From positions 1 to 39,466 of the forward strand of contig JAHJGQ010000100.1 of assembly GCA_018824365.1 (NCBI GenBank): 39,466 nucleotides of DNA, written 5' to 3'. Below the pieces are notes generated by a model, which worked only from the letters and a program-made list of their open reading frames with translations, did not search any database and had not been told where the DNA came from. The DNA comes from Nanobdellota archaeon (lineage in GTDB: Archaea > Nanobdellota > Nanobdellia > Woesearchaeales > GW2011-AR9). The position numbers and the translations under genes were made by a program. Position 1 is the first letter of the stretch, and each line of letters starts with the position of its first letter. Positions 26,265-37,731 of the stretch are shown here, one piece after another.

Positions 26265-27104
26265 ATGAAAATTATCCTGAGTAGAAAAGGGTTTGATTGT
26301 GAAAATGGGGGTTATGCTAGCCCGGTTCTTCCCAATGGAAAGCTAATATCTCTACCGATTCCATCAAGTGATGTAATAAAATATTCTGATTTAAAATTAG
26401 ATGACAACAAATCCTATTTTGATTTAATGAAAGAATTAAAACCAAAAATAAAATATAACAAAGAATGGTGCGAATTAACCAAAGAAACAAAATGTCATTT
26501 AGATCCTGATATTTATGTAGATATTCTAAAAAGAGATAGAGATTGGAAAGCTTCTTTTGGACAAATTAACCAATCACAATCACATTTACTAAATGAAGGA
26601 GTTAGAGAAGGAGATCTATTTTTGTTTTTTGGTTGGTTTAGACAGACTATCTTAAATAATGGTAAATTATGTTTTGATAAATCTGCTCCTGATTTACACA
26701 TACTTTTTGGATATCTTCAGATAGGAAAGATAATCCAAGTCAATAATAAAACCAAAATCCCAAAATGGATGAAATTTCATCCGCATGCAGTAGATGAAGA
26801 TAGAATAAAAACTTCTACAAATACAATCTATGTTACAAGAAAGAATTTAACATGGGATGAAGGATTATCTGGAGCAGGAATTTTTAGATTTAATAAAGAA
26901 TTAGTATTGACAAAAGAAGGTCTTTCCCGTTCAAAATGGGGCTTGCCAGATTTTTTTAAACAAGTGAAAATAAGTTATCATTCTGAAAAATCATGGAAGC
27001 CAGAAGGATATTTTAAATCAGTAGATAAAGGTCAAGAGTTCGTGATTGAAAATAATGAAGATGTTGAGAATTGGGCTAAATCAATAATAAAAAACAATAG
27101 TTAA
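26265..27104 (+). CDS. Hypothetical protein resembling the Nmad3 (nucleotide-modification-associated) family
   Basis: The N-terminal MKIILSRKGFDCENGGYASPVLPNGKLISLPIP matches my memory of the family signature. This is unverified. Confidence 0.45.
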   Translation: MKIILSRKGFDCENGGYASPVLPNGKLISLPIPSSDVIKYSDLKLDDNKSYFDLMKELKPKIKYNKEWCELTKETKCHLDPDIYVDILKRDRDWKASFGQINQSQSHLLNEGVREGDLFLFFGWFRQTILNNGKLCFDKSAPDLHILFGYLQIGKIIQVNNKTKIPKWMKFHPHAVDEDRIKTSTNTIYVTRKNLTWDEGLSGAGIFRFNKELVLTKEGLSRSKWGLPDFFKQVKISYHSEKSWKPEGYFKSVDKGQEFVIENNEDVENWAKSIIKNNS

Positions 27105-27317: not shown

Positions 27318-28097
27318 ATGACTTTTAAAAAATGCGCTTTGACATCACTGCTTCTTACTCTCGGAGCATGCAGCGGAACTAGCTGTTCAAGAACTTATGA
27401 AAGACCTCCTATAACACAGGAAGTGAGAGATAGAAATGATAATAACCTCAATAGTGATACGATTAATGAAATCTTAGATGCTTCAGTGAAGATAAGAAGC
27501 AAGTATACGTATCTTGAAAACATAGATGATATGACTTCTATTGAACTTAAGATAAAAGGGAGCTTGGGTTCAGGTGTAGTTCTATATGATGATGATAAAG
27601 AGGAATTTTATGTGATTACGGCTAATCATGTACTTCCGCCAAAGGAAATAGAGAATGGTATCCTACTGGAACAGACGGTTACAGCAGGGGAAATTGAGGG
27701 TGAAGTGATTAAACGCAATGAAGGCATCGATCTGGCTTTGCTTAAACTTACAGGTGGAAAGTTCATGCCTTATACAAGAAAGTTTGCGCAAGATACAAAC
27801 ATAGGAGATTATGTTATAGGTGCAGGTTTTCCCAGTGGTGGGCAAAAAATTCTCTTTAAAGGATTTATTTCCAGTTATGATATTCGTGATGAGGTTCCTG
27901 TACATACGGTTATAGATTCTAGTATCTCTCCCGGAGATTCAGGATCAGGTACTTACATCTTGCAGAACGGAAAAGCACATCTTGCTGGGATTGTACAAGT
28001 ATATTATCTAAATAAAAGAGGCCAGGCAGGGATGTCACCATTATCATATCTTAGAAACTTTGTCAAAGATACGGATATTGAAGATGAATATCTGTAA
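27318..28097 (+). CDS. Trypsin-like serine protease, probable lipoprotein
   Basis: Lipobox LTLGAC. Catalytic triad context ITANHV / IDLALLKL / GDSGSG. Confidence 0.8.
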   Translation: MTFKKCALTSLLLTLGACSGTSCSRTYERPPITQEVRDRNDNNLNSDTINEILDASVKIRSKYTYLENIDDMTSIELKIKGSLGSGVVLYDDDKEEFYVITANHVLPPKEIENGILLEQTVTAGEIEGEVIKRNEGIDLALLKLTGGKFMPYTRKFAQDTNIGDYVIGAGFPSGGQKILFKGFISSYDIRDEVPVHTVIDSSISPGDSGSGTYILQNGKAHLAGIVQVYYLNKRGQAGMSPLSYLRNFVKDTDIEDEYL

Positions 28098-28214: not shown

Positions 28215-28526
28215 ATGGGAAACAATGATTCTTACAAAAAATTAGAATTGCCGAATATAAATATTGCTTTAGTCCATATCGATATGGAAGGCAATAAAAA
28301 TTGTTATGCACTTGGCGAAGATGGTAATCTTTATGCACCGGCAAATCTAGAAGCTTATCTATTCCCTTACTCAGAAAAAGCTTTGTACACCCTTTATTCT
28401 AAAGATAGGTTCTTGATAGAAAAGATACGTTTTCAGTCTATTGAAGATTATCTGATAATAGACGAAGATAATCTTGAAGATTATATGGTTGAGGAGGAAG
28501 ATGAGCCTTACAGAAATGATCGGTGA
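28215..28526 (+). CDS. Acidic hypothetical protein
   Basis: 103-aa ORF. Its 3' end overlaps the start of the next gene by 26 nt. Confidence 0.5.
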   Translation: MGNNDSYKKLELPNINIALVHIDMEGNKNCYALGEDGNLYAPANLEAYLFPYSEKALYTLYSKDRFLIEKIRFQSIEDYLIIDEDNLEDYMVEEEDEPYRNDR

Positions 28527-29316
28527 ATGGGATACTTTTCATCAGATGGCAAGCAAGTCTGAACTTAAACCGACACTTCATTCAAAAACTTTTGATACGG
28601 ATAAATTGACTCTTGTCTTGATGGGAGACATGCATATAGGCAGTAAGTTTTATGATGCAGATAGGCATAAAGAAATCTTAGAATGGTGTTGGGAACAAAA
28701 AACTCCTTTAATTCTTATGGGCGACAATATTGAAGCTGCTACAAGAGATTCTGTCGGAGCAGGTGTTTATGAGCAGTCAGAAATAATAGAAGAGCAGGTT
28801 GAACATTTTTATCATCTGTTTAAGCCTTTCGCTAAAGAAGGTTTGATACTTGGGATGCATGAAGGCAACCATGAAGCAAGAGTATACAAAGCTACCGGTT
28901 TTGATCTGGCAAAAAACATGGCAAGACAATTAGGCATCTCTTATTTTAGCTATTCAAAACTGCATAACTTAATAGTTGGAAATCAAAGTTATACGATGTA
29001 CACAACACATGGTGCCAGCGGAGCTACAAAACCGCATACAAAAATCAAAGGCGCATTGGATCTATCTCATGTTGCTGATACGGAAATATATGCAATGGGC
29101 CATGTCCATACTTTGGATCATCATGTCAGAACTTATTATGAAGTTGATAAGCGTAATAAGAAGATTGTACAGAAAAAGAAACATTTTATCATCACTGGAA
29201 GTTACTTGTCTCATTGGGGAAGTTATGGTCATATCAAGAACATGGAACCCTCACCTATCGGCAGTCCTAAACTTAAATTGTCAGGAGTGGAACACGAAGT
29301 AAGAGTTTCATTATGA
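28501..29316 (+). CDS. Calcineurin-like metallophosphoesterase
   Basis: Motifs GDMHIG, GDNIEA, GNHE, TTHG and GHVH. The start is set at ATG 28501, preceded by GAGGAGG. Confidence 0.8.
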   Translation: MSLTEMIGEWDTFHQMASKSELKPTLHSKTFDTDKLTLVLMGDMHIGSKFYDADRHKEILEWCWEQKTPLILMGDNIEAATRDSVGAGVYEQSEIIEEQVEHFYHLFKPFAKEGLILGMHEGNHEARVYKATGFDLAKNMARQLGISYFSYSKLHNLIVGNQSYTMYTTHGASGATKPHTKIKGALDLSHVADTEIYAMGHVHTLDHHVRTYYEVDKRNKKIVQKKKHFIITGSYLSHWGSYGHIKNMEPSPIGSPKLKLSGVEHEVRVSL

Positions 29317-29936: not shown

Positions 29937-29971
29937 ATTTGGGTGTGGTTTTTAAATCAATTTAAAACTAG

Positions 29972-30090
29972 TAAGTAATAGGTCAGCTTGCACGGCACGA
30001 GTATTTTTGGCTCAAGGTAAAATCTTAACAACTTAATTTAAGCTCAACTTGCCAAAAATGTGCCTCCATTGGCAAAATAGACCTATTACT
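29972..30090. repeat. 119-nt imperfect long hairpin (inverted repeat)
   Basis: 12-bp perfect outer stem (29972-29983 with 30079-30090). Further in: 4 bp (29987-29990 with 30071-30074), 5 bp (29993-29997 with 30059-30063) and 9 bp (30002-30010 with 30050-30058). Confidence 0.7.
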
Positions 30091-30244
30091 TTCTAAACCT
30101 AATTACTCAATGTGCAGGAAATGTAACAAATTTTGCAATAAAGTAGATATTTCTATACAAATCTTTTTAAATTAACAAATCATCGAAAACTAGTGGGTGT
30201 TTTTTTTGTAATTTTATAAATCAATAAATTTTTCAGGAGGACTT

Positions 30245-32623
30245 ATGCTAGAAAAAATAATAGATTTTTTATTCCAGCGTAAACCTACTTATGTCCCTGA
30301 AAATACTTCTGAAAAAGATTTAGTCAATACAGTAGGGAAAGGTCTTAAAGAGAAGCAGTCTAAGTTATTAGACACTTTTAATCTAATGATGCAGCAGAAA
30401 TGGGATCCATTTGATATTTCAAATTCTATTGTGGCATTGAGATTATTAGAAAAAAAACATGATCTTCCAAAAGAAGTTTATCAATTAGTTGAACATGCAG
30501 TTGAATATGGCTCTTTAGAACCTTATCCTTATCATCTATTTAAGATACCCGTTGGAGACCATGAAAAAAAACAAAATTCTTTTTCACAATTAGAAACGCT
30601 ATTAGAAGGGATAAGTATTTTGGAATCTGTAGATAATCCTCCTAGGTGGGTATACACCGACCTTTGGGATAAATGGCACGGAAATAACGATAAAGCAAAC
30701 AGCGATTTTTTCGCATCTGACGTGAAGATCTCAGCAAATAAATTGATCAATGCTAGCGACATGCCAAGGAAAGCGCGGAACTTTTTCTTGAAAGTGATGG
30801 ACAACTTTGTTCCGGATTATGAAGTCTCTTATGGAATAAGAGCGGGAAGGTTAGCAGAAAATATATCGCTGGCAACAGAAGAAACATATTCTGGATCATA
30901 TAGTTATTGTAATGCTCTTTTTGAGATTTTTCCGGAAACCCCGCCGGAAGTTTACGGTGCTTTTCTTTCTCTTCCGCAAAACGTTCCAGATAAGTTTGAT
31001 ACTTTTATAATAAAATTATTAAAATTGCTGCCTGAACAGGCAAAAAAATATCATTACTTAAAGAAGATAGAAGAAGTTACAACAGAAGTGGTTGGCCTGT
31101 TAAGAAACGGACATAACCCTGCTGTAGTCGGGCAGCTTTTTGGTAATTGTGATTTTGAAGCTGATGGTGCTATGAGGGCATTGTATGTGAGGGGACAACT
31201 TTTAGCTAAAATAAAAAAAGAAGTTCCCATCAACCAGATTACCAATAAATTTGTTGGTCTGATCTCAATGCTTGAACATGTAAATTATAATGTTGATCCA
31301 ATAATCTTCCATCTTGCCAGTAAGCTACCGGATCCTGAACAGGAACATTTTAACTGGCACATCGATAATCTAAGAGGCTATACTAACTCTATTGACCTGA
31401 TCATTTTTGCAGACGCATTATATGATTATATGGTAGGTAAACAGCTAAGCCATCTACAGGAAAAAGACTTTGCTACTTTCCTTTCAAGATCCATGCGCAG
31501 CGGTACTAAGAAAAGAAAAGAACGTCAGGAGATTGAAAGCGTCTTAAAGAGTAATCTGGAATCCTTGCAGGATTGTCCTGAACATGTCAAAGAATATTAT
31601 GGTAGTTTGTTTCCTCAAATTATGGTTCAAAATAAAATGCTTGATGTTGGTGAAGATAATGGAGCTTGGTATCTCGACCAGGAAGCGGTTTCAGCTTTTC
31701 TTAAAGCTAAAACAAATCATGATTCCAAAGATGGGAACTTCCTTAATGAAGTAGTTAACAAGCTAATTATGGGGGGTTTATTGGATAACAGAAAACAGAG
31801 AAATATTGTTACGGTTAACCTTGCCTGTGGGTCAGCTTATTCTGAACTTAGGTTCGGCGAAATTTTAGGAAGTAAAAGAAACGGTTTTGATGTCCAATCT
31901 TTGCTTATTGATAATAATGCTCCCATGCTTGAATCAGCAGCACTTAATTGTCAGATCTCCAGAAAGAAAGCATCTTTACTTAAAAAAGATATTAGATATC
32001 TTTCTTATGAAGGAGATGTTTTACCTTACTTCCAGCCGCAGGATAGGCAATTAATACTTACTCTCTTCGGAAGGACTTTCTTTAATCTTGAATTGACTGC
32101 AGAGGTTGTAATTGAAAGGATCTTTGAAATTGCAGAAAGACATTCTCGTAATAGTAAAAGTCCGACGATAGTGCTGCTGGAAGGGGATAAAGAGAAGAAC
32201 ATGAAATATTACCGTGATCCTGGATCAGAACAGATGCATCTTGTTTATTTAGCTAATCGTTTAGATGTCAGAAAAGAAAACTTTTTTGTTAGAAATGAAT
32301 CTACTTATGCAGCTTTATTGACTCCTGATAAGAGCAAAGTAGAATTTTATTTTTTGATCACTGAAGATGTACCTATGGTAAAAACAGCCCTGAACTCTTT
32401 TTGGTTAAGAAGCGGCCGTGTTATCAGGATTGGAGAAAGCAGAACAGTCCAGCCTTCCCTTAGAGATTATTTTGAAAGAAAAGGATTTCAATATGGTGAA
32501 GTTAACAATAAATATGATGAAGTGATGGTCGTTCTTACTCCAGACACCGGTAAATTTTTGACGGTAAAAGACACTCAGCCATTAAGATTGAATAATTATA
32601 AAGGAGGAGTTAAATTAAAATGA
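30245..32623 (+). CDS. 792-aa protein: unknown helical N-terminal region plus a C-terminal EgtD/EasF-like methyltransferase-fold domain
   Basis: AGGAGG lies before the ATG. The C-terminal roughly 270 aa show the motif order NLACGSAYSE, TLFGRTFFNL, LLEGDKEKN..YRDP, VEFYF and IRIGESRTVQPSLRDYFERKGF. Confidence 0.65.
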   Translation: MLEKIIDFLFQRKPTYVPENTSEKDLVNTVGKGLKEKQSKLLDTFNLMMQQKWDPFDISNSIVALRLLEKKHDLPKEVYQLVEHAVEYGSLEPYPYHLFKIPVGDHEKKQNSFSQLETLLEGISILESVDNPPRWVYTDLWDKWHGNNDKANSDFFASDVKISANKLINASDMPRKARNFFLKVMDNFVPDYEVSYGIRAGRLAENISLATEETYSGSYSYCNALFEIFPETPPEVYGAFLSLPQNVPDKFDTFIIKLLKLLPEQAKKYHYLKKIEEVTTEVVGLLRNGHNPAVVGQLFGNCDFEADGAMRALYVRGQLLAKIKKEVPINQITNKFVGLISMLEHVNYNVDPIIFHLASKLPDPEQEHFNWHIDNLRGYTNSIDLIIFADALYDYMVGKQLSHLQEKDFATFLSRSMRSGTKKRKERQEIESVLKSNLESLQDCPEHVKEYYGSLFPQIMVQNKMLDVGEDNGAWYLDQEAVSAFLKAKTNHDSKDGNFLNEVVNKLIMGGLLDNRKQRNIVTVNLACGSAYSELRFGEILGSKRNGFDVQSLLIDNNAPMLESAALNCQISRKKASLLKKDIRYLSYEGDVLPYFQPQDRQLILTLFGRTFFNLELTAEVVIERIFEIAERHSRNSKSPTIVLLEGDKEKNMKYYRDPGSEQMHLVYLANRLDVRKENFFVRNESTYAALLTPDKSKVEFYFLITEDVPMVKTALNSFWLRSGRVIRIGESRTVQPSLRDYFERKGFQYGEVNNKYDEVMVVLTPDTGKFLTVKDTQPLRLNNYKGGVKLK

Positions 32624-34200
32624 GTATCTCAAATACTTTAGAAAAAAGGATTGAAGATAGTGTCTTTCGAGAATTATCAGATAATAAAAAAGGGATACGT
32701 AAGCAGTTCATCAATCTTTTACATCCCTATGCTTATTATGGTCGCGATTTTTATGGAGGAAAAAGAAATCCTTCGTTGAGAGTTGGGATGCTGCCCAGGA
32801 TCACCAAAAGGTTTATGCCTAACTGGATAAATTTAGGAAAAATAGTCCGGATGATCTTCGATTTTCCTGCTGATCAACCTTTAAATCCTCATTTCATGCA
32901 CGATATAAAAGAGCCGCTTCTCGGCGCTTTGAGTAAGATGGGCACTGAATCCTATACGGATGAGTGGAAAGATGTCAGAGCACAAAACGACATATCAGAT
33001 TCCATCGAAGCTTCAACAGATATAACTGTAGTGATGAACAAGCTTTTAGGTTTAGCAAGTGATCAGCATATCATTAAATCTTTTGAGATGATCGAAAGAA
33101 AAGAAATCGATGAATATATTGTTGTTGACCTGGGAACAAGTGTAGAAGGGAATACTATCATAGCTCATCTAAACAGGATCAGATCTTTAGCAGAACAGAA
33201 GAGAATATTACCTAATTATGATAATTATGTGAAAGTTGTCCTTGTTGATGTTGATCCTAGGGCGACGTTTAAAGCTGAAGAAAGATTATACTCTCTTGAT
33301 CTTAAACCGAGACAAGTAGAATCGATCAATACTAATTTTATCGATATGCCTGCAAATAATACTTTAGCGATGAATTATAAAGGAAGAATCAACACTTTTT
33401 TATCTGGTGCGGCATTGATCCATGTAACTGACTTAGAGCCTACATTCAAATTTCTTAATTATATCGCTTCTGAAAATAGTGCTTTTTTTATTTGGGATTG
33501 GCATGCAATGTGTTTTGCCGGCAGATACCTAAGATTAGCGGAAGATGGAGAAGACAAGATTGTCTTCCAATTAAATCATGGTCTAGATAAAAAAAGAAGT
33601 GAAATTAAACTTAATCTAAACGAGGAGATCTCTGGAGAATTACTATCTCGGCTTGCAGATGTGCAGATGAAAACTATCTTTGAAATAAAAGAAGAATACA
33701 TCCCTGCGATTGTTGCAAATGCGATAGCATGGATGGGTTATTGGGGTTTTTCTGTTTTCAATAAAGAAGAGAATAAGATCATAGAAAAAGAAATTGAAGG
33801 CAAACCTTTATCAGCATATTTCAAAGAAACTTTTCATAGAAAAATCAGGTCAGAAAAAGGTTTTGGTTTCATCGACGATTTTGCAGTTGGGATGATCTGG
33901 AAAAACATGATGCGTGGAAATCTCGAACCTTTTTATGGGGTGACACCAAGCAGTTATAACCTAATTGAAGGTTATGGGGATGATTATGCAAGACTGATGA
34001 AAAATGCAGGATTAAATGCGGTTGACATCTCTCTCGACAAATTTTTAAAAAATTCAAATAGGAGAGATTGTTTCGATTTTTTTGATCATCGGATGAGTTA
34101 TGCACAGAAAAGAGTAAAAGATGCAATGCGCTTTACGTTTGGATGCAAGAACAAGGATTATTTTAATGGTTTGTTTTTACCATTCGTAGAAGGAAGATAA
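32620..34200 (+). CDS. 526-aa protein with a divergent class I (Rossmann) methyltransferase-like core
   Basis: Shares an ATGA overlap with the upstream gene. Motifs YIVVDLGTSVEGN, VVLVDVDPRA and TFLSGAALIHV. Confidence 0.65.
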   Translation: MSISNTLEKRIEDSVFRELSDNKKGIRKQFINLLHPYAYYGRDFYGGKRNPSLRVGMLPRITKRFMPNWINLGKIVRMIFDFPADQPLNPHFMHDIKEPLLGALSKMGTESYTDEWKDVRAQNDISDSIEASTDITVVMNKLLGLASDQHIIKSFEMIERKEIDEYIVVDLGTSVEGNTIIAHLNRIRSLAEQKRILPNYDNYVKVVLVDVDPRATFKAEERLYSLDLKPRQVESINTNFIDMPANNTLAMNYKGRINTFLSGAALIHVTDLEPTFKFLNYIASENSAFFIWDWHAMCFAGRYLRLAEDGEDKIVFQLNHGLDKKRSEIKLNLNEEISGELLSRLADVQMKTIFEIKEEYIPAIVANAIAWMGYWGFSVFNKEENKIIEKEIEGKPLSAYFKETFHRKIRSEKGFGFIDDFAVGMIWKNMMRGNLEPFYGVTPSSYNLIEGYGDDYARLMKNAGLNAVDISLDKFLKNSNRRDCFDFFDHRMSYAQKRVKDAMRFTFGCKNKDYFNGLFLPFVEGR

Positions 34201-35153
34201 TTTATCCTGTGTTCTTTATAGACAAGGGTAGCGTTTGAATCCTTAATTGTCTCAGGAAATTGTGCTTTAATGCTTCTTATTAGAAAATGTATATCTTTAA
34301 CGTTTTTCACATGAGCTTCAAATTCAAGGTCGGCATGGCCGAGAGCGTCGGTAACATATACAACATTAGGATTTATTTTTAGAAAACCGATAATATCTTT
34401 TCTTACCTTTTCAGTAAGTTGATGTAAAGAAAGGAATACTTTATAATGCTGATAACCGAGAGTGCTTACATCAATCTTGGTCTTGAAAGCTACAATCACC
34501 TTATTATCTATCAATCTTTTGATTCTGTATTTGACGGTGTTTGGCGGTAAGTTAAGTTTGCTTCCAATATTCAGTGTTGTATTCCTGCAATCTTCAGCGA
34601 GAATTTTTAGAATCTCATTGTCGATCTCGTCAAGCTCTATCGAATCGACTTTACCTCCTATGACTATTTGATTATAATCGTTGGAATCAAAAAGAAAATT
34701 ATGTTTAAAATGATAGATGTTGAGGATGACAGTTGTGACGATATTTTGAAAATATTTTCCGTATTCTGTAAAGAGACCGTCACACATCTCTCTAAATGAA
34801 AAGATGTCTTTTGCCCAAAAAAGAATAACCAAATCGTAAAAACCTTCATATGTTACAACCCACCCCACATTTGGATGATTTTTCAAATGTTTTAATAACT
34901 TCTGTTCTGTTTCAGGACTAAGATCCCTATATTTTATAAAAATCCTGTAAATCCTATATCCAATCTTAGAAGGATCTATCACTGCCCCAAAACCTTTTAT
35001 CACGTCGTTCTGCTGAAGACGTTTTATTCTATAATTAACAACTTCTTTACTGAGGCCTACTTTTTTTGCGATGTTAGAAATAAATTCTCTGCCGTTTAAA
35101 TCTAATTCAAATAATATTCTTTTATCTTTTGCATCAAGAACAAGAACACTCAT
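34158..35153 (-). CDS. Tandem (double) Lrp/AsnC-type transcriptional regulator
   Basis: Two HTH_AsnC modules (residues about 5-50 and about 175-220), each followed by a RAM-like domain. Confidence 0.8.
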   Translation of the reverse strand: MSVLVLDAKDKRILFELDLNGREFISNIAKKVGLSKEVVNYRIKRLQQNDVIKGFGAVIDPSKIGYRIYRIFIKYRDLSPETEQKLLKHLKNHPNVGWVVTYEGFYDLVILFWAKDIFSFREMCDGLFTEYGKYFQNIVTTVILNIYHFKHNFLFDSNDYNQIVIGGKVDSIELDEIDNEILKILAEDCRNTTLNIGSKLNLPPNTVKYRIKRLIDNKVIVAFKTKIDVSTLGYQHYKVFLSLHQLTEKVRKDIIGFLKINPNVVYVTDALGHADLEFEAHVKNVKDIHFLIRSIKAQFPETIKDSNATLVYKEHRINYLPSTNGKNKPLK

Positions 35154-35349
35154 TTTTTATTGTATGTCATCTGAACTATATAAAATTTGCTATAAAATAA
35201 AAATAAATCAGATAAATTTTATATTTATAATCATTTTCTTTAATTTAAATCATCTTAAATATTTTACGATTAATCATTTAACAAAACCAATTCAGTAAAA
35301 ATTCTTTTTGATAAAATATCTTCTGACAAGATATATATTGTCGTCTTAC

Positions 35350-35574
35350 ATGAATTGTTCTATGGAAAGAAAGAAAAAGATTATGCCCTGTAAATGTCTT
35401 TGCAGGGATGGCACTGCCTGCCTAAATAAGGGGAAACATGAGGGATATTGTTGGGTGCACAAAAAACGTGTTGAGTTTGTCAAACTGCAGACTCGGTTGG
35501 GAAATTATCCTGAACATAACATCGCTAGAAGATGGCTGGAAGATATTCCTCTTGAAAGAAGGTTATCCGGATAG
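35350..35574 (+). CDS. Small Cys-rich basic protein
   Basis: CKCLCRDGTACLNKGKHEGYCWVH cluster. The start is uncertain: TTG 35308, ATG 35350 or ATG 35362. Confidence 0.35.
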   Translation: MNCSMERKKKIMPCKCLCRDGTACLNKGKHEGYCWVHKKRVEFVKLQTRLGNYPEHNIARRWLEDIPLERRLSG

Positions 35575-36777: not shown

Positions 36778-37731
36778 ATGTTAAACAAAATATCTGATGA
36801 ACTGAAAGAAAAAATAAAGAATTTCACTTCAGAAGATAAGATAATATTTAATAATAAAGTTCTTGATATTAACCATAACTATTTCATTCCTATAACTTCT
36901 GTCATTAAGCAAGAAAATGAAATAAAAAATAAAACAATTACTTTTATCGACGGCGGTCAGGCTGAAATAATCTCTGCAGGGAATTTCTGTCTTAGCTTTA
37001 TCAGAATTGTAGGATTAATTATAAGAAATAATAAAAAAATAAATAATATCAAAAAAGAGTTTTATCTTTTAACTACAGCAAATTATTCTGATAATGAATT
37101 ATTCTACCAATCTAAAATATTCGGAGACAAATTAGTTGATGAGGATGATTTATACATCTCTTCTACTGATAATACGATCAGAACGGGAATGGAAAGAGCA
37201 TCGATAAGTAAAGTTAGCAATGTAGCGAGGAGATTTGCAGAATTGAGTATGGCAAGCTGTGTTAATTCTGATTATGTTGTTCTTGATGGAACTTTAGAAT
37301 CCACTTATAAGAATGAAGATAAATATCTTTCAAGGTTAAATTGTAATGTATGTGCATTGGCAAAATCATCATCTTTGTTTACAACTTCAGGAAATTCTCC
37401 AATCGTTTTGCTGAATAAATTAGGGCCGGAAGGCTGCTGGCATTATTTTTTAGAGCATAAATCTTATTTTGTTAAATTACATGAAAAAGCAAAACATGTT
37501 TTTAGGTTTGAAGGAAACAAAGATGTTTTGGCTGAGCTGTTAGATAACTGTAATGATGCATTGTTTTTAGGTTATCCTTATAGTCTGATTTTGGCAGATA
37601 GATTAGCAAGGGTTGGCAACCAAGAAAAGAAATCATTGCAGATGAGATTTTTGTTAAGTAATGAGAATAGAGAAATAGCTGAATATCTTAATACTGGTAA
37701 TGCCCATGAAATTTTGGATAATTTAGGCTGA
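36778..37731 (+). CDS. nurA: NurA-like 5'-3' nuclease
   Basis: ITFIDGGQAEI, YVVLDGTLES, ALAKSSS and GYPYSLILADRLARV match the remembered NurA motif order. Confidence 0.55.
   Translation: MLNKISDELKEKIKNFTSEDKIIFNNKVLDINHNYFIPITSVIKQENEIKNKTITFIDGGQAEIISAGNFCLSFIRIVGLIIRNNKKINNIKKEFYLLTTANYSDNELFYQSKIFGDKLVDEDDLYISSTDNTIRTGMERASISKVSNVARRFAELSMASCVNSDYVVLDGTLESTYKNEDKYLSRLNCNVCALAKSSSLFTTSGNSPIVLLNKLGPEGCWHYFLEHKSYFVKLHEKAKHVFRFEGNKDVLAELLDNCNDALFLGYPYSLILADRLARVGNQEKKSLQMRFLLSNENREIAEYLNTGNAHEILDNLG

Follow-up and report, generated by a model that had tools for sequence, protein, structure and literature searches.

We analysed a stretch of 39,466 nucleotides from a Nanobdellota archaeon (contig JAHJGQ010000100.1; hereafter, the window), in which two large overlapping genes meet the gene of a tandem Lrp/AsnC-type protein. 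The two genes are called P1 (open reading frame, ORF, 30245-32623) and P2 (ORF 32620-34200) throughout. The window is the whole of contig C119 in a 1.23-Mb genome (G000) that is 96% complete and whose closest relatives with a name carry the label Candidatus Woesearchaeota. Other loci that were fetched carry L-numbers, other genomes G-numbers and metagenome runs X-numbers. The features of the cassette, together with the basis on which each was assigned, are as follows.

30235-30240, + strand: ribosome-binding site of P1, AGGAGG, read directly, 4 nt ahead of the ATG at 30245
30245-32623, + strand: P1, 792 aa, a helical N-terminal region followed by a predicted EgtD-type methyltransferase domain (ORF)
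30245-31510, + strand: P1 residues 1-422, helical, with no assignable family or fold (library and fold searches)
31511-32551, + strand: P1 residues 423-769, predicted divergent EgtD-type (Methyltransf_33-like) S-adenosylmethionine (SAM) N-methyltransferase domain (fold and profile-profile comparison)
32602-32607, + strand: ribosome-binding site of P2, AGGAGG, within the 3' end of P1, read directly
32620-34200, + strand: P2, 526 aa, predicted class I SAM methyltransferase with flanks of ~145 aa (N-terminal) and ~215 aa (C-terminal) (ORF)
33052-33549, + strand: P2 residues ~145-310, predicted Rossmann methyltransferase core with motif I DLGTS..GNT, motif II VLVDVD and motif IV SGAALIH (AlphaFold2 model and hhalign)
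34158-35153, - strand: tandem Lrp/AsnC-type protein, 331 aa, twice a helix-turn-helix (HTH) plus ligand domain (Pfam)

Structure of the locus

A sequence-only reading of this DNA had described two coupled ORFs of 792 and 526 aa that overlap by ATGA and converge on, and overlap, a tandem-Lrp gene. Both ORFs lie on the + strand with the ATGA overlap at 32620-32623, all of the motifs quoted in that reading occur in the translations of P1 and P2, and the Lrp ORF is convergent with the 3' end of P2, which it overlaps by 43 nt; its two HTH stretches were also recovered. From the ATGA overlap and the Shine-Dalgarno site, we predict that P2 is translationally coupled to P1.

The junction of P1 and P2 is bridged by contigs from other studies (X3, 31807-33154; X4, 32023-32984; also X8 and X9), and so is the overlap of P2 with the Lrp gene (X3, 34015-34309; X4, 34041-34280; groundwater metagenomes). 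Since these contigs span both junctions with 0 differences, we conclude that the gene arrangement is real and no assembly artefact. The nine runs that contain the sequence, from five studies, include no RNA data.

The methyltransferase domain of P1

The C-terminal third of P1 had been taken for an EgtD/Methyltransf_33-like domain on account of its motif order, an assignment that both fold searches and a profile-profile comparison now support. In the AlphaFold2 model of P1, the block means of the predicted local distance difference test score (pLDDT) are mostly 53-89 over residues 440-770. Foldseek, which had been suggested as a check on each domain, leads from the P1 domain to EgtD (top match, E 4e-8) and from P2 to generic class I methyltransferases. 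In the VIA structural comparison, chains of EgtD match P1 residues ~423-769 with Z-scores of 17.0-18.8 over 272-290 aligned residues (root-mean-square deviation 5.4-6.2), while the best family other than EgtD is MfnG, with Z 15.6 over 212 residues. An exhaustive fold search, independent of Foldseek, gives Z 17.6 over 289 residues for EgtD versus 14.8 over 215 for the next match. The model itself has the two-lobed fold of the EgtD type, that is, a Rossmann core and a substrate lobe.

For the comparison at the level of sequence we searched 201 genomes belonging to the same phylum for PF10017 (Methyltransf_33) proteins; 19 contain a match, 12 of them over the cut-off, and a scan of the window's own genome at E 10 or less found none. 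Five true PF10017 proteins, with Pfam scores of 31-85 bits, make up the alignment A5, and 14 sequences of the P1 family make up the alignment A3. When A3 was compared with A5 by hhalign, the two aligned with a probability of 96.1% (E 3.5e-9) over 265 columns, corresponding to P1 residues 460-744, and the five A5 proteins in turn match EgtD chains at 1.2e-14. It is through this comparison that sequence homology of P1 to bona fide members of Methyltransf_33 was found.

Direct searches gave nothing of the kind. None of the 13 other P1-clade proteins scanned matches PF10017, Pfam and NCBIfam returned 0 families at E 0.1 for either P1 or P2, and phmmer found 0 matches to each in the PDB. Profile searches against the PDB did not rise above noise: P1 drew designed helical bundles at E 0.027, and no match of P2 was better than E 0.7. 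Because P1 fails the Pfam membership test, we describe it as a divergent long-form relative of EgtD and not as a member of the family. P1 has no membrane segment (maximum KD19 1.09). The models and alignments thus taken together indicate a soluble enzyme, whose C-terminal ~345 residues are predicted to form a very divergent EgtD-type SAM-dependent methyltransferase.

Candidate active-site residues of P1

According to the accessible part of PMC8593015, Thr163 and Asn166 of EgtD contact the alpha-amine of the substrate, Tyr206, Ser284 and Tyr56 contact its carboxylate, and Glu282 and Thr213 contact the imidazole. We carried these residues over to P1 by chaining two alignments (A3 to A5, and A5 to EgtD), a mapping that is accurate to about one residue at best. 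The EgtD segment G-S-T163-I-G-N166 falls on G609-R-T611-F-F-N614 of P1, where the G, T and N are invariant in all 14 sequences of A3; N614 is also kept in each of the 24 further relatives that align over the position. Ser284 falls on S732, which is invariant in A3 as well. The equivalent of Tyr206 is Y668 by the computed alignments and Y656 by eye, and both of these are invariant. No counterpart of Tyr56 was mapped, the EgtD alignment starting at residue ~60.

The full set of invariant residues in A3 is D556, G609, T611, N614, E646, G647, Y656, Y668, G730, E731 and S732. D556 is the motif II aspartate; the motif III aspartate, D582, is present in all but one of the 16 P1-type sequences that cover the position. 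Motif I is fixed as G-L-A-C-G-D-A in the P1 clade and reads G-G-G-C-G-x-A in most of the distant relatives of 607-919 aa. In most of those distant relatives that align there, D556, D582, G-x-T-x-F-N and E-G-D..K..Y-Y are likewise kept. This pattern suggests that the motifs of P1 are under selection. Since the motifs for SAM and for amine contact are conserved both in the clade and in its distant relatives, we read P1 as an active enzyme and not as a binding-only protein; it is probably active as a methyltransferase.

The N-terminal region of P1

The remainder of P1 had been described as about 500 aa of helical sequence without a recognisable motif. Its helical nature and its lack of a family stand; its length is about 420-460 aa. 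The region yields 0 matches in Pfam, NCBIfam, PADLOC and PHROGs, and no feature match in the ESM atlas (template modelling score, TM, 0.30 or less). Nothing usable emerged on its fold. Because the methyltransferase domain takes up the results of structure searches with the whole model, the fold may be a known one. The AlphaFold2 model is weak here, with block-mean pLDDT mostly 34-72 and residues 245-349 under 50. The region shows no similarity to the tandem-Lrp protein (hhalign probability 0.08%), and it is common to the distant relatives of 607-919 aa.

P2

The second protein was thought to have a Rossmann-type core between flanks that could not be placed. A class I methyltransferase fold is indeed what the searches find, with flanks of ~145 and ~215 aa. 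In the AlphaFold2 model, residues ~141-290 have block-mean pLDDT values of mostly 57-90, apart from one block at 44, and the rest of the protein has lower values. Foldseek matches 27 PDB methyltransferase chains at E 0.001 or less. In the VIA comparison Coq5 comes first, with Z 13.3 over 184 aligned residues; the list is flat, rank 50 still having Z 10.4, and no subfamily stands out. The ten top neighbours of P2 in the ESM atlas are all of Methyltransf_11/25/UbiE types. P2 itself reaches no Pfam model at threshold, and its relatives are sub-threshold for Methyltransf_11/31.

Among the eight members of the P2 family (two of them nearly identical), D170, G172, T179, D210, N239, F240, G263, A264, A265, H268 and W292-D-W294 are invariant, and motif I has the form D-x-G-x-G in seven. 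As far as sequence and model can indicate, we regard P2 as belonging to a new small family within the class I SAM methyltransferases. We also considered whether P2 might be a paralogue of the P1 domain; this was rejected, the hhalign probability being 0.9%. The hhalign match of P2 to the short PF10017 forms (74%) covers motifs I-IV alone. A predicted complex of P1 residues 423-792 with P2 scored 0.00 versus a mark of 0.32, which speaks neither for nor against binding.

The tandem-Lrp partner

The Lrp protein of the window has two stretches each of HTH_24 (6.1e-23) and HTH_AsnC-type (2.8e-22) in Pfam. AsnC_trans_reg, at 21.8 bits, stays below its cut-off of 25, and Lrp-type models of NCBIfam match both halves.

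A convergent tandem-Lrp gene is present in all eight P1-clade loci that have downstream DNA, and in six of them it abuts P2. Between P1 and the Lrp gene lie one small gene in L002 and two in L003, and the copy in G087 is cut by the contig end. Outside the clade, a convergent tandem-Lrp gene also accompanies the distant P1 relative in L006 and all three long PF10017-type proteins (L026-28; 964, 768 and 830 aa). Two of the five short PF10017 proteins (L016, L017) are divergently adjacent to a tandem-Lrp gene, and the loci fetched for the other three (L014, L015, L020) contain none.

Compared with the Lrp protein of the window, those beside P1-type genes are 55-60% identical over the aligned parts. 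The figure is 40-44% for the neighbours of two long PF10017 forms and 32% for that of the third, 26-28% for those beside the short forms, and 34% or less for the five paralogues in the window's own genome. In a tree of the Lrp proteins, the P1-linked genes fall into two well-supported clades. The Lrp gene is a conserved partner of P1-type genes and not a chance neighbour, a point that the sequence-only reading had not recognised.

Cassettes of the G229 type have, in addition, a small HTH_24 gene upstream and a single-domain Lrp gene downstream, so that three Lrp-type genes surround the two methyltransferase genes. The cassette of the window has neither of these extra genes, which lie at:

L012, 5694-6179 and 12014-12457; equivalents in L049-L051; L040, 799-1329: extra HTH/Lrp genes of the G229 type

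The whole genome of the window holds six full-length tandem-Lrp genes. Those outside the window are on contigs C116, C105, C98, C26 and C35 (L030-L034), the copies on C116 and C105 being near-identical, which is a striking expansion for 1.23 Mb. No methyltransferase gene was seen beside these other paralogues in the short loci fetched.

Distribution of the cassette

Among 5.8 billion protein clusters, P1 and P2 have two relatives each besides themselves. When 1.84 billion representatives were searched with a P1 profile, 28 proteins scored E 0.001 or less and 13 of these reached 1e-30 or less; the 28 include two repeat proteins (PD40 and leucine-rich repeat) that look spurious. Of 61 related genomes, 4 have a P1-type gene; in a sample of 301 genomes of the order the number is 5, the window's genome included. 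P2-type genes occur in 4 of the 301, one of these being a weak 63-residue match. The P1 family is thus rare and sporadic in Woesearchaeota-type DPANN archaea.

The sequence-only reading had also proposed a search for the gene pair and its conserved neighbours in other genomes, and the pair does recur, with the tandem-Lrp gene as its conserved neighbour. In G229 and G290, from another family of the same order, there is a P1-type gene (863 and 827 aa; 26-28% identical to P1; E 9e-60 and 7e-82), followed by a coupled P2-type gene (31% in G229, E 1e-88) and then by a convergent, overlapping tandem-Lrp gene (57%). Three metagenomic relatives of P2 (L049, L050, L051) stand in the identical three-gene arrangement, L050 being a near-duplicate of G229. 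At the contig end in L005, a distant relative of P1 is followed downstream by a fragment matching the P2 profile (E 4e-15).

Every P2-type gene with readable upstream DNA, seven of seven, follows a P1-type gene (the window, G229, G290, L049, L050, L051 and the L005 fragment). The converse does not hold: L002/L004 and L003 have a P1-type gene and no P2. On these gene orders, P2 occurs only behind P1-type genes and is dependent on P1. No third gene is conserved near the cassette; its neighbours vary (transglutaminase, SPFH, S3Ae, TrkH, superoxide dismutase, peptidase, phosphoesterase). As a whole, then, the cassette is real, rare and uncharacterised.

Two observations belong beside this survey. 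A high-depth contig of X3 joins 30217 to 35224 and omits 5006 nt, which are exactly P1, P2 and the Lrp gene. With just 20 nt on its shorter side, the joint may be a repeat or come from another organism; if it is real, cassette-free strains exist. Separately, L003 (CAZCXW010000015.1) is titled as a Methanosarcinales metagenome-assembled genome and has the order peptidase, phosphoesterases, P1 relative, tandem Lrp, superoxide dismutase. This gene order and a 60%-identical Lrp match the Woesearchaeota contig L002, and L003 is probably a mis-binned DPANN contig.

Proposed function and alternative explanations

We propose that the cassette methylates the nitrogen of an amino acid or similar amine step by step, controlled by the Lrp-type protein, and does not serve the synthesis of ergothioneine; we give this proposal about an even chance of being correct. 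P1 would act as N-methyltransferase on the amino group of an amino acid or of some comparable small primary amine. P2 would then add further methyl groups or methylate a second position, a role that we take to be analogous to the two-enzyme betaine or choline pathways. The Lrp family senses amino acids, and the Lrp-type protein would control the genes in response to the substrate or the product. The substrate of P1 is probably not histidine en route to ergothioneine. The sequence-only reading could not match the pair to a described pathway, and none was matched here.

A number of points weigh against this proposal. Pfam returns 0 families for P1 at E 0.1 or less, and the gathering threshold of PF10017 is not reached. 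Confidence in the two structure models is low to moderate (mean pLDDT 60.8 for P1 and 45.1 for P2). The mapping of EgtD residues rests on two alignments at 11-13% identity, the equivalent of Tyr206 being ambiguous; Glu282 falls on G730 of P1 (with E731 adjacent) and Thr213 on N671, and specificity is unreadable from these residues. The P2 of the window reads D-L-G-T-S, with a serine at the second glycine of motif I. The Lrp tree does not resolve at its base and neither shows nor excludes that all Lrp genes linked to methyltransferases arose once, and because related genomes share ancestry, the tallies of Lrp linkage overstate their independence. Moreover, a conserved helical extension of ~420 aa is not usually found in small-molecule amino-acid methyltransferases and would suit a macromolecular substrate.

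This extension bears directly upon the main alternative explanation, namely the methylation of a protein or peptide: the N-terminal region of P1 would dock a macromolecule (for instance the adjacent Lrp-type protein or a chromatin protein), the EgtD-like pocket would methylate the N-terminal amine or a lysine of that macromolecule, and P2 would modify a second site. In favour of this, the whole long-form superfamily has kept the large N-terminal region, and the linkage to a DNA-binding protein persists in the convergent orientation, which rules out co-transcription of the Lrp gene with P1 and P2. The N-terminal protein methyltransferase ScNTM1 is among the structural matches (Z 13.4), and there are weak HEAT/TOG-like neighbours of the N-terminal region, although their TM scores of 0.23-0.34 lie below a meaningful level. 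To our knowledge, however, all characterised Methyltransf_33 enzymes act on free amino acids, and the equivalents of the serine and tyrosine with which EgtD binds the carboxylate, unneeded for a peptide N-terminus, are invariant in P1. We consider this explanation unlikely, while still allowing it some weight. A different doubt arises from the glycine loops, which the sequence-only reading took as a hint of binding instead of transfer: one or both proteins could be pseudo-enzymes, sensors or scaffolds that bind SAM or an amino acid without transferring methyl groups. Motif I of the window's P1, N-L-A-C-G-S-A, lacks the last glycine and the preceding acidic residue, and P2 has DLGTS in place of D-x-G-x-G. 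Set against these deviations, motif I is fixed in the clade of P1, where the motif II Asp, G-x-T-x-F-N and EGD..K..YY are invariant and the motif III Asp is kept in 15 of 16; seven of the eight P2 members have a canonical motif I, and all of them keep D170, G172, D210, N239-F240 and G263-A-A..H268. The pattern of conservation fits purifying selection on catalysis, and the hint did not hold up; we regard pseudo-enzymes as quite improbable.

Two further explanations appear less probable still. If P1 were a distant EgtD that trimethylates histidine, the cassette would serve the synthesis of hercynine and ergothioneine. EgtD is the closest solved structure, and the accessible part of PMC7278568 reports EgtD homologues in archaea (118 of them by InterPro). 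But the 96%-complete genome has no FGE-sulfatase/EgtB domain and a single, unlinked rhodanese protein, and the histidine-contacting Glu282 and Thr213 are not kept; for these reasons ergothioneine synthesis is very unlikely. In addition, PF10017 does not score P1, and EgtD has neither the ~420-aa N-terminal region nor a P2 partner. Equally remote, in our estimation, is a pair of methyltransferases for nucleic-acid modification or defence, the former of which had been put forward as a candidate from the sequence. A gene of the Nmad3 family lies 3 kb upstream and the distribution of the family is sporadic, yet neither P1 nor P2 has a match in PADLOC or PHROGs at E 0.01 or less, no Nmad3, nuclease or ATPase gene is conserved beside the pair in other loci, and the best structural relatives are small-molecule methyltransferases. 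The candidate thus found no support.

Returning to stepwise N-methylation, one may go further and suppose that the cassette makes, and the Lrp-type protein senses, an undescribed N-methylated amino acid, betaine-like, in these ultra-small symbiotic archaea. We offer this as a rather doubtful extension. The linkage of Lrp with EgtD-like genes is convergent at P1-type genes and divergent beside the short forms. Were the extension true, this linkage would point to a widespread circuit that has yet to be described, with a methyltransferase making or removing the effector to which its own feast/famine regulator responds; P2 and the N-terminal region of P1 would be clade-specific elaborations of it.

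The upstream hairpin and neighbouring genes

The pair had been said to be preceded by a 119-nt hairpin. A hairpin does exist there; it is 127 nt long, however, and is dispersed, not operon-specific.

29969-30095, no strand assigned: imperfect 127-nt palindromic repeat, MITE-like (folding and genome copies)

Its minimum free energy is -38.1 kcal/mol (z -4.66), and 0 of 200 shuffles are as good. Five further pieces of the repeat lie on contigs C28 (96%), C73 (91%), C108 (two pieces, 96%) and C14 (73%), and both of the copies that were checked besides the window's (C28 and C73) are intergenic. With four copies aligned, 0 of 32 pairs show compensatory changes, and Rfam gives no family at threshold (MIR2670 scores 21.4 bits versus 117). 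Since the hairpin is a dispersed repeat with no Rfam family and no compensatory pairs, it was rejected as an operon signal or structured RNA. It is a dispersed palindromic repeat outside the functional module. The copy on C108 (29742-29997; L045, L047) is split in two pieces ~136 nt apart, as if by an insertion in the loop.

Several neighbours in the window were also assigned, as follows.

26265-27104: 279-aa protein with a match to Nmad3 (nucleotide modification associated domain 3, PF18754) at E 4.8e-70, not conserved beside P1-type genes elsewhere
27318-28097: trypsin-like peptidase (PF13365, 3e-13), with a weak LmuA-like match in PADLOC
28474-29316: metallophosphoesterase, matching PHROG 7339 'DNA repair exonuclease' at 5.6e-39
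35308-35574: 88-aa Cys-rich ORF with a sub-threshold DUF5763 match (23.2 bits versus 26.3)
36778-37731: 317-aa protein with a C-terminal NurA match at 2.4e-07

The order of peptidase and phosphoesterase is also found upstream of the P1 relative in L003.

Comparison with known systems

Searches of the literature, with subscription papers outside their coverage, found nothing on Methyltransf_33 in archaea or on a Woesearchaeota methyltransferase with Lrp, and the accessible part of PMC7278568 does not mention the P1 family. A tiny DPANN genome here spends 4 kb on two large methyltransferases, as we predict them to be, that match no family library. The analysis turns two hypothetical proteins into a testable hypothesis, the questions being which amino acid is methylated and whether the methylated form is a signal or a solute. 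It would also extend the sequence space of the EgtD superfamily far below the detection limit of Pfam, and add a ~420-aa domain without a recognised fold and a new class I methyltransferase family.

The closest known system is EgtD itself (L-histidine N-alpha-trimethyltransferase; PF10017; PDB 4pio, 4uy5, 7scf), with which P1 shares the two-lobed fold, the motif order and candidate equivalents of Thr163/Asn166, Ser284 and Tyr206. P1 differs from it in several respects: the two are 11-13% identical, the Pfam model misses P1, and P1 has the extra helical N-terminal region of ~420 aa. P1 reads G-L-A-C-G-D-A at motif I, has not kept the residues specific to histidine and lacks an EgtB or EanB partner; instead, P1 is coupled to a second putative methyltransferase and to a tandem-Lrp gene.

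The long PF10017 forms of related DPANN archaea (G292, 964 aa; G141, 768 aa; G205, 830 aa) resemble P1 in having a long N-terminal extension and a convergent tandem-Lrp gene that abuts or overlaps. Their C-terminal matches to Methyltransf_33 score 36.2, 32.7 and 20.6 bits, respectively, versus a cut-off of 23. Unlike the P1 family, they have no P2 gene; their N-terminal regions are not detectably related to that of P1, and the profile match between the two is around motif I alone.

Finally, stepwise N-methylation by two enzymes is known from glycine sarcosine methyltransferase (GSMT) and sarcosine dimethylglycine methyltransferase (SDMT). As in those pathways, P1 and P2 are two putative SAM methyltransferases that may share successive methylations of one amine, and their genes are adjacent. 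The generic structural matches include GSMT and a putative SDMT (Z 14.1 for P1 and Z 10.9 for P2), but there is no specific relation beyond the class I core. Furthermore, in contrast to the GSMT/SDMT pathways, P1-type genes also occur without P2, and both P1 and P2 carry large extra regions.

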